64,000 nucleotides of DNA. Origin: Candidatus Eiseniibacteriota bacterium. Its GTDB lineage: Bacteria > Eisenbacteria > RBG-16-71-46. The notes beneath the pieces are model-generated. The model saw only the letters and a program-made list of their open reading frames with translations, searched no databases and was not told where the DNA came from. The stretch is from contig JANLWK010000242.1 of assembly GCA_031364505.1 (NCBI GenBank), forward strand, positions 7,775-71,774, in the 5' to 3' direction. Shown piece after piece: positions 40,888 to 41,126 of the stretch. A program made the translations under genes and the position numbers. Each line of letters begins with the position of its first letter. The stretch's first letter is position 1.

Positions 40888-40993
40888 GAGGAAGCGAAGC
40901 GAGAATCCTCTCGGACAAGCGAAGCGGACCCACCGGAACACTAGTGCTGTGTCTCTGGAATCCGAGTTGAAGGAGGTGGGCTTCGTGGACCTC

Positions 40994-41044
40994 ATCCTGG
41001 TTCTCGTGAATTTCTTCGGTAAGGCGGGCTGGTAAGCTTCGGCT
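40994..41044 (+). CDS. candidate small hydrophobic ORF (16 codons: MDLILVLVNFFGKAGW) in the leader of the HD-GYP gene
   Basis: AGGAGG at 40979-40984, GTG 9 nt downstream, TAA at 41042-44. Followed by a GC hairpin CCCCC-11nt-GGGGG (41065-41090). Purely sequence-based; could be non-coding. Confidence 0.2.
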
Positions 41045-41126
41045 TGCATCGATGTGATGGGCCCCCTTTGAAATCTCCGGGGGCGATGTCGGTCTCATCT
41101 TCTTCCACGTCCTGACGCGCAAGGGA

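Follow-up and report, generated by a model that had tools for sequence, protein, structure and literature searches.

The 64,000-nt stretch of DNA analysed here (the window; contig JANLWK010000242.1 from a Candidatus Eiseniibacteriota bacterium) holds an RNA module that is conserved across the phylum, located between a gene for a 250-aa protein, here called 'up', and a gene for an HD-GYP phosphodiesterase of cyclic di-GMP (c-di-GMP). The module is a fold of about 230 nt built around a 16-codon short open reading frame (sORF), and neither its RNA nor its peptide is covered by any Rfam, Pfam or NCBIfam family. The module is undescribed. Its existence, the core of its fold and the coding status of the sORF are well supported. 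With a little less than an even chance of being right, we propose that it is a leader or intercistronic RNA of the up-HD-GYP pair that acts as a leader-peptide switch; its output could be control of HD-GYP in cis, a peptide acting in trans, or both.

The space between the stop codon of up and the start codon of HD-GYP measures 239 nt (40888-41126) when read from the sequence, and an earlier note, made from this one sequence, had singled it out as a structured leader of lower guanine-cytosine (GC) content. In this regard, the note was right, as no other 200-nt stretch of the window has so little GC (53.5%, the mean being 72%). The only other stretches below 60% GC, all at about 59%, are found at 295-522, 8064-8299 and 58864-59091 and may be intergenic or regulatory. 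Every feature listed in the note is present in the sequence, but several coordinates had to be shifted by 1-9 nt. The copies of the direct repeat AGCGAAGCG occupy 40893-40901 and 40918-40926 rather than 40894-40902 and 40919-40927, and AGGAGG (40971-40976) is separated from the GTG at 40985 by 8 nt, not 9. The sORF had been translated correctly as MDLILVLVNFFGKAGW, but its span, TAA included, is 40985-41035 instead of 40994-41044, while the blocks CCCCC (41062-41066) and GGGGG (41079-41083) enclose 12 nt and not 11. Taken by itself, this sequence does not exceed chance levels: the 9-mer AGCGRAGCG shows no enrichment, with 5 matches in the window where 6 are expected, and the RNA of the window folds no better than its shuffles (z = 0.15). 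The significance of the features therefore rests on their conservation and covariation.

A genome scan with the HD-GYP protein gave about 42 orthologous loci, nearly all of Candidatus Eisenbacteria, with 57-74% identity. These 42 loci share synteny, with the same 250-aa up gene upstream and a gap of 200-360 nt. A scan of metagenomes with the pattern repeat-N-repeat-N-GGAGGTG matched at least 120 loci, and among the matches listed about 60 are true elements, while about 50 were set aside as unrelated tandem repeats or repeats resembling repetitive extragenic palindromes (REP-like). In the following, the loci of relatives are labelled with L-numbers. The genome and metagenome loci pooled together hold at least 106 sORFs with at least 87 distinct peptides. 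Among the metagenome matches listed, a homolog of up precedes the element in 50 of the 51 loci with flanks, and an HD-GYP gene follows it in 42-43 of 46. The tandem or REP-like repeats are an observation of their own: built on GAGCGAAGCGA and often found beside CCTCCCCC or GGGGGAGGTG blocks, they are intergenic in many unrelated metagenome contigs, which lie within L080-L197 (e.g. L111, L135, L143, L151, L175 and L177) and match the pattern by chance.

In regard to the sORF, it was found in all 41 Eisenbacteria loci, with 16 codons in 36 of them, and its ATG or GTG start is always located 6-12 nt past an invariant Shine-Dalgarno (SD) sequence, AAGGAGGTG. Among 65 distinct 16-codon sequences, entropy at codon positions 1, 2 and 3 amounts to 0.89, 0.34 and 1.23, respectively, and the ratio of non-synonymous to synonymous changes (pN/pS) is 0.48 in frame in comparison to 0.83 and 2.79 off frame. 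All 65 keep this frame open, while the other two frames carry stops in 29 and 13. In addition, lysine and arginine replace each other in the peptide through AAG and CGC codons. Such a codon-level signature argues that the sORF is translated and that its product is under protein-level selection. The sORF of the earlier note can accordingly be regarded as a real gene, kept in all Eisenbacteria orthologs behind a strong and invariant SD. A small membrane protein, one of the readings offered in the note, is not supported: the peptide family is amphipathic and acidic rather than membrane-spanning.

The most conserved part of the peptide is the block G-[KR]-A-G-W, which is accompanied by synonymous codon variation, with glutamine at position 13 in the closest relatives of the window (L001 and L031). 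Other clades end in HTWW, QTW, VNW and similar sequences, and some of them are devoid of lysine and arginine altogether. The common denominator of the family is a hydrophobic or acidic helix with tryptophan (Trp) at, or within three residues of, the end. The rule of a terminal Trp followed by a stop, preferably UAA, is nearly absolute. It holds in all 41 Eisenbacteria genome loci, a set assembled without any Trp filter, and in 101 of the 106 pooled sORFs (metagenome matches listed included), a set which was chosen for Trp among the last four residues; in the remaining ones, Trp lies within three residues of the end. All three stop codons occur, with UAA making up 65% of the 106 loci (matches listed included; 41033-41035 in the window), while the HD-GYP genes at the same loci, in genomes of about 72% GC, end with TGA in 37, TAG in 3 and TAA in 0 cases (n = 40). 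Some clades have Trp codons multiplied to 3 or 6. In one of them, the sORF reaches about 47 codons with three GK[AG]GW units, as in MTIFMMLLDETVVGVIEALYDGKGGWDSAQPDGGKGGWVTTEGKAGW followed by a stop (L083, 2737-2880), and likewise in L095, L116, L133, L147, L150, L153 and L194, while a second clade (L155, L196, L199 and L124) presents three SGGHTWW units. Six of the longer variants gave only insignificant matches in Pfam and NCBIfam.

The sORF is enclosed by a conserved structured RNA, as had been supposed for the region before the HD-GYP gene. The closing helix P1, a perfect 14-bp inverted repeat in the window that the earlier note had overlooked, surrounds the whole domain of about 230 nt. 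Across the 42 loci, 11 of its 14 pairs change on both sides, and the observed covariation values were reached by none of 500 shuffles. P1 shows a mean pairing probability of 0.80 in 42 folds, a mean native energy of -25.0 kcal/mol in comparison to -16.9 +/- 3.1 for shuffled partners, and is present in 99 of 99 elements (genome loci and metagenome matches listed). In divergent clades its sequences are entirely different and the helix is retained. An internal loop separates P1 from a second helix of 4-5 bp, P1b, where 4 of the 5 tested pairs covary, with 0 of 500 shuffles as high, and the mean pairing probability is 0.41. These helices also determine the fate of the second mini-ORF of the earlier note, MSVSSSSTS (ATG 41087 to TGA 41116), which is no ORF, since its first 11 nt, conserved in the alignment as ATGYCGGTCTC, constitute the 3' strand of P1 (P1'). 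The imperfect inverted repeat 40876-40895/41036-41055 (20 nt, 75% complementary) was observed as well. It pairs the 3' half of the P1 5' strand, ACATCGAT, with ATCGATGT just past the sORF, and it is a possible alternative to P1 for which conservation was not seen.

Sequence composition changes directly past P1. In 94 elements (metagenome matches listed included), T accounts for 45% and pyrimidines for 77% of the 6 nt that follow P1', and C makes up 41-45% over 30 nt in comparison to 27% in the whole element. At least 5 T occur within the first 10 nt in 41 of these 94 elements, where the two strands of the stem are about 200 nt apart.

Inside the closed domain, the direct repeats, recovered as a 10-nt AAGCGAAGCG pair by a repeat search of the window, turned out to be the most conserved non-coding bases. 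They never vary in the 42 loci, while the spacing between them ranges from 18 to 28 nt, which led to the rejection of a DNA operator for a dimeric regulator and argues for a role in RNA rather than as a DNA site. The repeats are predicted to pair mutually (-3.3 to -3.9 kcal/mol), with GC/CG pairs round a 3x3 purine loop; because of their invariance, covariation is unable to test this pairing. In some clades only, the repeats pair with coding sequence of the sORF or with a spacer GCUUCG, and these pairings are not conserved. Directly 3' of repeat 2, the anti-SD ACCCACC(U) is complementary to (A)GGUGGG of the sORF ribosome-binding site, so that the sORF start site is masked in the modelled consensus fold. 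This helix is paired in 85% of cells and has a mean probability of 0.49 (42 folds), and the different sequences of other clades are still complementary, e.g. GCCAUCU with AGGUGGC and CACUUCUC with GGGAGGUG. The hairpin P4 contains the final codons of the sORF, and its loop GGUA is made up of GG, which ends the Trp codon, and UA, which opens the stop codon. In 93 of 98 loci (metagenome matches listed included), the stop codon is bridged by 3 or more pairs, and the enrichment of P4 over shuffles is modest (z = -0.35, p = 0.006). Altogether, the fold has generic features of a riboswitch, namely covarying helices, invariant core nucleotides and an SD-masking platform. Comparing the gap among relatives, as the earlier note had suggested, thus upheld the sORF but not the GC hairpin, which is specific to the window and not conserved, and the same lack of conservation across the aligned loci was found for the GAGA-N4-TCTC palindrome (40901-40912).

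Table 1. Features of the module and its flanking genes, in coordinates of the window.
Feature	Position	Strand	Remark
Upstream partner gene up, 250 aa	40135..40887	+	stop TAG at 40885-40887
P1, 5' strand TGAGACCGACATCG	40868..40881	+	inside the last codons of up (predicted disordered tail)
P1b, 5' strand GGAG	40887..40890	+	overlaps the TAG stop of up; pairs with CTCC 41075-41078
Repeat 1, AAGCGAAGCG	40892..40901	+	consensus AGCGRAGCG, invariant in 42 of 42 loci
Repeat 2, AAGCGAAGCG	40917..40926	+	invariant (42 loci)
Anti-SD ACCCACC	40928..40934	+	complementary to GGTGGGC in the ribosome-binding site of the sORF
P3 hairpin, between anti-SD and SD	40934..40958	+	sequence varies, hairpin retained
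Shine-Dalgarno of the sORF, AGGAGGTGG	40971..40979	+	AAGGAGGTG (nearly) invariant, 42 loci
sORF, GTG to TAA, 16 codons, MDLILVLVNFFGKAGW	40985..41035	+	conserved, with coding signature
P4 hairpin, holding the last sORF codons	41019..41047	+	folds
GC hairpin GCCCCC..GGGGGC, one pair longer	41061..41084	+	window-specific; loop holds the conserved CTCC 41075-41078, the 3' strand of P1b
P1, 3' strand CGATGTCGGTCTCA	41084..41097	+	overlaps the start of the spurious ORF MSVSSSSTS
U/C-rich, G-poor tail	41098..41126	+	directly after P1; ends in the HD-GYP ribosome-binding site AAGGGA
HD-GYP c-di-GMP phosphodiesterase gene, MASE9-like membrane N-terminus	41127..42473	+	Pfam HD_5, NCBIfam

The link to the downstream gene is most apparent in relatives with a compact element. 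In about 14 of them, only 4-13 nt separate the sORF stop from P1', and in most the downstream gene for a membrane HD-GYP protein begins 6-30 nt after P1'. SD-like GAGG or GGGG stands inside P1' in L120 and L180, while in L109 a run of U8 follows P1. This geometry implies coupling of sORF translation with the downstream gene. In the compact relatives, the ribosome finishing the sORF would have to open P1, and P1 would occlude the downstream start or complete a terminator. According to the leader-peptide model, translation of the sORF would be the gated event, with a trigger that presumably acts on the repeat region. The ribosome arriving at the Trp-stop end would then remodel the P1-closed fold, and the remodelled fold would set the level of downstream HD-GYP expression. 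This could happen through opening of a P1 that masks the downstream initiation region, through termination-reinitiation, or through prevention of a terminator formed by P1 and the U-rich tail. The peptide may act in trans as well, as suggested by the variants with repeated units, the UAA bias and a clade in which purM takes the place of HD-GYP.

Several observations weigh against this model. In the clade of the window, 32-55 nt (48 nt in the window itself), comprising P4, a variable hairpin and CUCC, separate the sORF stop from P1', and any cis link would be indirect there. In partition-function models for the same clade, accessibility of the HD-GYP ribosome-binding site is unchanged by a ribosome at the sORF stop or by a block of P1 (0.45/0.45/0.43), and pairing of the post-stop segment with P1', of the antiterminator type, does not rise above the level of dinucleotide shuffles (mean z = 0.04, p = 0.72). 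A scan for consensus terminators yields one weak site, at about chance level. Furthermore, one clade (L083, L095 and L147) keeps up and the full element but has purM downstream instead of HD-GYP, and the variants with three GK[AG]GW or SGGHTWW units are more easily reconciled with a peptide that has a function than with a sensor acting purely in cis. It should also be considered that the metagenome set was retrieved by a pattern that itself demanded the repeats and the SD. Control of the downstream gene, as proposed in the earlier note, is thus a compelling possibility in the geometry of compact relatives and receives no support from folding models of the window's own clade; at the window locus, we infer the cis link from these relatives.

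With respect to the flanking genes, up has no match in Pfam, NCBIfam or PDB sequence searches. Its AlphaFold2 model (predicted local distance difference test score of 84) shows two domains, and the C-terminal one matches 3fig_A by Foldseek (E = 6e-6), which points to the fold of the allosteric, amino-acid-binding regulatory domain of LeuA/CimA. One UniRef name agrees with such a reading. The last 17 residues of up are conserved and predicted to be disordered, and as their codons overlap the 5' strand of P1, their conservation probably reflects the RNA strand. The HD-GYP protein matches Pfam HD_5 (E = 3.8e-33), contains the GYP motif, and has a MASE9 match just below the curated cutoff (E = 6e-5). 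Its start at ATG 41127 stands, whereas TTG 41160 was rejected, as the start column of the other loci holds no start codon of the window in the alignment. The neighbourhood consists of genes for a polyprenyl synthase, arginyl-tRNA synthetase, a PfkB kinase, up, HD-GYP, a sigma-54 activator, an oxidoreductase and Lnt. There is no adjoining maturase, protease or exporter and the peptides match no NCBIfam or Pfam precursor family, so a precursor cluster for ribosomally synthesised and post-translationally modified peptides was ruled out. A scan for sigma-70 promoters found none. Further downstream, a 370-aa ORF without a Pfam match (42553-43665) overlaps, in another frame, the beginning of the sigma-54 activator ORF (43535-44563), which has AAA+ and HTH_8 but is without an N-terminal sensor domain; the two may be one frameshifted gene or the result of a mis-set start.

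The element is not restricted to the closest orthologs of the HD-GYP gene. It also adjoins HD-GYP homologs that are only distantly related (30-35% identity), in loci of the Krumholzibacteriia and Gemmatimonadota type, where the peptides are quite different (MLDFLMGLFYKWEW, MISWLAAAFDFAANVLALPVQDW, MSWFLTAAAMLGGTLTW and others). On the other hand, up and HD-GYP are adjacent or overlapping, without the sORF element, in L044 (around 2977-3001) and L045 (around 1981-2017), which represent one Latescibacteria and one Krumholzibacteriia locus. This suggests either that the element was inserted into a two-gene unit of greater age or that such a unit has lost it. In the three related contigs with purM downstream, a GC-rich hairpin precedes that gene (2940-3040 in L083). 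In L174 (176-697), the ORF past the element starts like the HD-GYP N-terminus (..FRLYYAAVL..) and continues with unrelated sequence, and this contig is probably chimeric or rearranged.

The same observations can be explained differently. The sORF could chiefly be a small-protein gene whose RNA fold merely regulates or stabilises its own mRNA, with the Trp-ended amphipathic peptide acting in trans on neighbours and cis effects on HD-GYP being secondary or absent. We consider this rather unlikely. As examples, the carboxylate of the C-terminal Trp could be a ligand of the LeuA-type domain of up, for which an allosteric amino-acid-binding fold is predicted, or the peptide could modulate the MASE9-like membrane domain of HD-GYP. 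In its favour are the conservation at the amino-acid level, with lysine and arginine exchanged via AAG and CGC, and the amphipathic acidic pattern, which is retained across 87 distinct peptides (metagenome matches listed included). Two clades independently grew to three Trp-containing units, and the exact Trp carboxyl end is guarded by UAA in a UGA-rich genome. One clade retains the element without HD-GYP, while up accompanies it at 50 of 51 loci (matches listed). Such a role, however, asks for stable binding from a partner of only 14-23 residues, and between phyla the sequences diverge almost wholly, save hydrophobicity and Trp. Moreover, the compact variants set the stop and the downstream start tightly round P1', a geometry of cis regulation, and up and HD-GYP persist side by side without the sORF in L044 and L045. 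It is far less probable that the element is a non-coding structured RNA with an incidental ORF, a reading to which we assign hardly any weight: the repeats, P1 and the SD region are indeed more conserved than most peptide positions, but the frame is open in 65 of 65 distinct sequences with stops in 29 and 13 in the other frames, third positions wobble while second positions are conserved, and ATG or GTG always stands at SD distance.

Other alternatives concern the helix and the Trp codons. P1/P1b could be an operon-internal processing stalk or terminator, where cleavage of the RNase III type, or termination at the stem and its U-tail, splits the up-sORF RNA from the HD-GYP mRNA, sets their ratio and leaves a stable mini-mRNA with paired ends, independently of sORF translation. 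A long-range stem of 14 and 4-5 bp flanking a functional unit resembles rRNA processing stalks, and a U-rich tract follows immediately (5 T or more among the first 10 nt in 41 of 94 elements, matches listed included), and in L109 P1 is followed by the U8 run. In L083 the element ends the transcription unit, ahead of a further GC hairpin. This explanation appears improbable to us, since the stem is interrupted and shorter than the approximately 20 bp typical of RNase III substrates, strands 200 nt apart make kinetically poor terminators, over half of the loci have an imperfect U tract, and the masked SD, the invariant repeats and the Trp-stop rule are left unexplained. Classical attenuation is slightly more doubtful still. 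In that model, scarce charged tRNA-Trp would stall the ribosome at the terminal UGG, switching hairpins and allowing read-through into HD-GYP. The only universal residue is in fact Trp, placed at the end of the ORF and multiplied to 3 or 6 in some clades, P4 contains the Trp and stop codons, and a stem with a U-rich tail lies downstream. But the regulated gene, an HD-GYP phosphodiesterase, is outside the Trp pathway, the remainder of the peptide is conserved too, and no conserved antiterminator alternative was found when pairing between the post-stop segment and P1' was compared with shuffles. In the 47-aa variants, the internal Trp codons are 27-60 nt from the stop, so that stalling there would miss P1'. 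A similarly low probability is given to the idea that the two-fold symmetric helix of the repeats (5'-GRA-3'/3'-AAG-5' loop) binds a symmetric signalling nucleotide on which the downstream enzyme acts, such as c-di-GMP, pGpG or another cyclic dinucleotide of this kind, and thus forms the pocket of a riboswitch class that would be new. The ligand would draw repeat 2 and the anti-SD off the sORF start, and translation of the sORF would relay the signal to HD-GYP. If true, this would be a riboswitch working through a leader peptide, in a feedback loop on c-di-GMP.

Among known families, nothing relevant was found by Rfam at the gathering score in the whole window. At E <= 10, the stretch 40700-41350 gave two irrelevant chance matches, both outside the element, and 12 diverse related loci gave none. 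The covariance-model scan that the earlier note had called for therefore leaves no known element that accounts for the region, and the note was correct in dismissing a c-di-GMP riboswitch, as neither c-di-GMP-I nor c-di-GMP-II is matched even at E <= 10. A tmRNA (transfer-messenger RNA) or tRNA-like origin was also rejected: ARAGORN was negative in 40000-42000, Rfam had no match, and the sORF starts from an SD and a start codon of its own. No description of such an element was found in the literature.

The module would be a new, well-defined RNA motif with a family of micro-peptides, known from over 100 examples that covary strongly, originating from uncultivated bacterial lineages (Eisenbacteria and Krumholzibacteriia and Gemmatimonadota relatives) and located at a gene for c-di-GMP turnover, where post-transcriptional control of HD-GYP enzymes is hardly known. 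Work on it could bring to light a novel signal for arrest or termination, a new RNA sensor of a ligand, or a peptide that binds a LeuA-type allosteric domain, and the objects for testing are small, a 230-nt RNA and a 16-aa peptide.

Each of the closest analogues has at least one defining feature that is absent here or beyond the reach of sequence analysis. S. aureus RNAIII/hld and SgrS/SgrT are likewise folded RNAs with long-range closure and a short ORF for an amphipathic peptide, but they are free-standing small RNAs, while the element is intercistronic and has no known base-pairing targets. The c-di-GMP-I/II riboswitches share with it a conserved structured leader before a gene of a c-di-GMP enzyme, an invariant purine-rich core, a closing helix P1 and an SD-masking platform; apart from the missing Rfam match, the difference is that the masked SD belongs to the embedded sORF. 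The leaders trpL, B. subtilis rtpLP and peTrpL, the last of which shows that such a leader peptide can also act in trans (PMC7298713), resemble the element in a 14-16-aa peptide with Trp codons near the end and in a structured leader. They differ in the downstream gene, here for a c-di-GMP phosphodiesterase, in that here the whole peptide is conserved, and in the alternative hairpins 1:2, 2:3 and 3:4, which were not found.

Another set of similarities concerns events at the end of a nascent peptide. E. coli PepNL (14 aa) and TnaC (24 aa), arrest peptides of the termination stage, have their regulatory event at the stop codon; hydrophobic residues are of importance in PepNL, which depends on read-through of UGA by Trp-tRNA (PMC11890864; bioRxiv 10.1101/2021.03.31.437805). 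The very short peptide and the involvement of Trp are common to both systems and to the element. There is, however, no sequence similarity, Trp is here the last residue itself, and the sORF uses all three stops with UAA preferred, unlike PepNL with its dependence on UGA. The arrest motifs of SecM and RAPP are R-A-G|P and R-A-P-P (PMC10951299, PMC10951233), and the C-terminal G-[KR]-A-G-W, which would sit at the peptidyl-transferase centre, resembles G-I-R-A-G-P. In the place of the critical A-site proline there is Trp, and arginine at -3 is not universal, given Gln13 in L001 and L031 and the endings HTWW, QTW and VNW in other clades; neither a secretion signal nor a downstream Sec/YidC gene is present.

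Finally, leaders of the ermC/cat type and the MS2 coat-replicase coupling are comparable in a short ORF, led by an SD, within a structured leader, and the compact relatives add to this the stop 4-13 nt before a P1' that is next to the downstream initiation region or includes it. In the window, on the other hand, the stop is 48 nt from P1' and the modelled downstream ribosome-binding site is unaffected, and a context of drug resistance is missing. The masking helix of the element is long-range and encloses the ORF itself, and the ORF's own SD is masked too. Such an architecture, an ORF held within a long-range clamp, with its own SD masked beside invariant repeats and with a peptide that obeys the near-absolute Trp-stop rule, is unlike the leader-peptide systems described so far.

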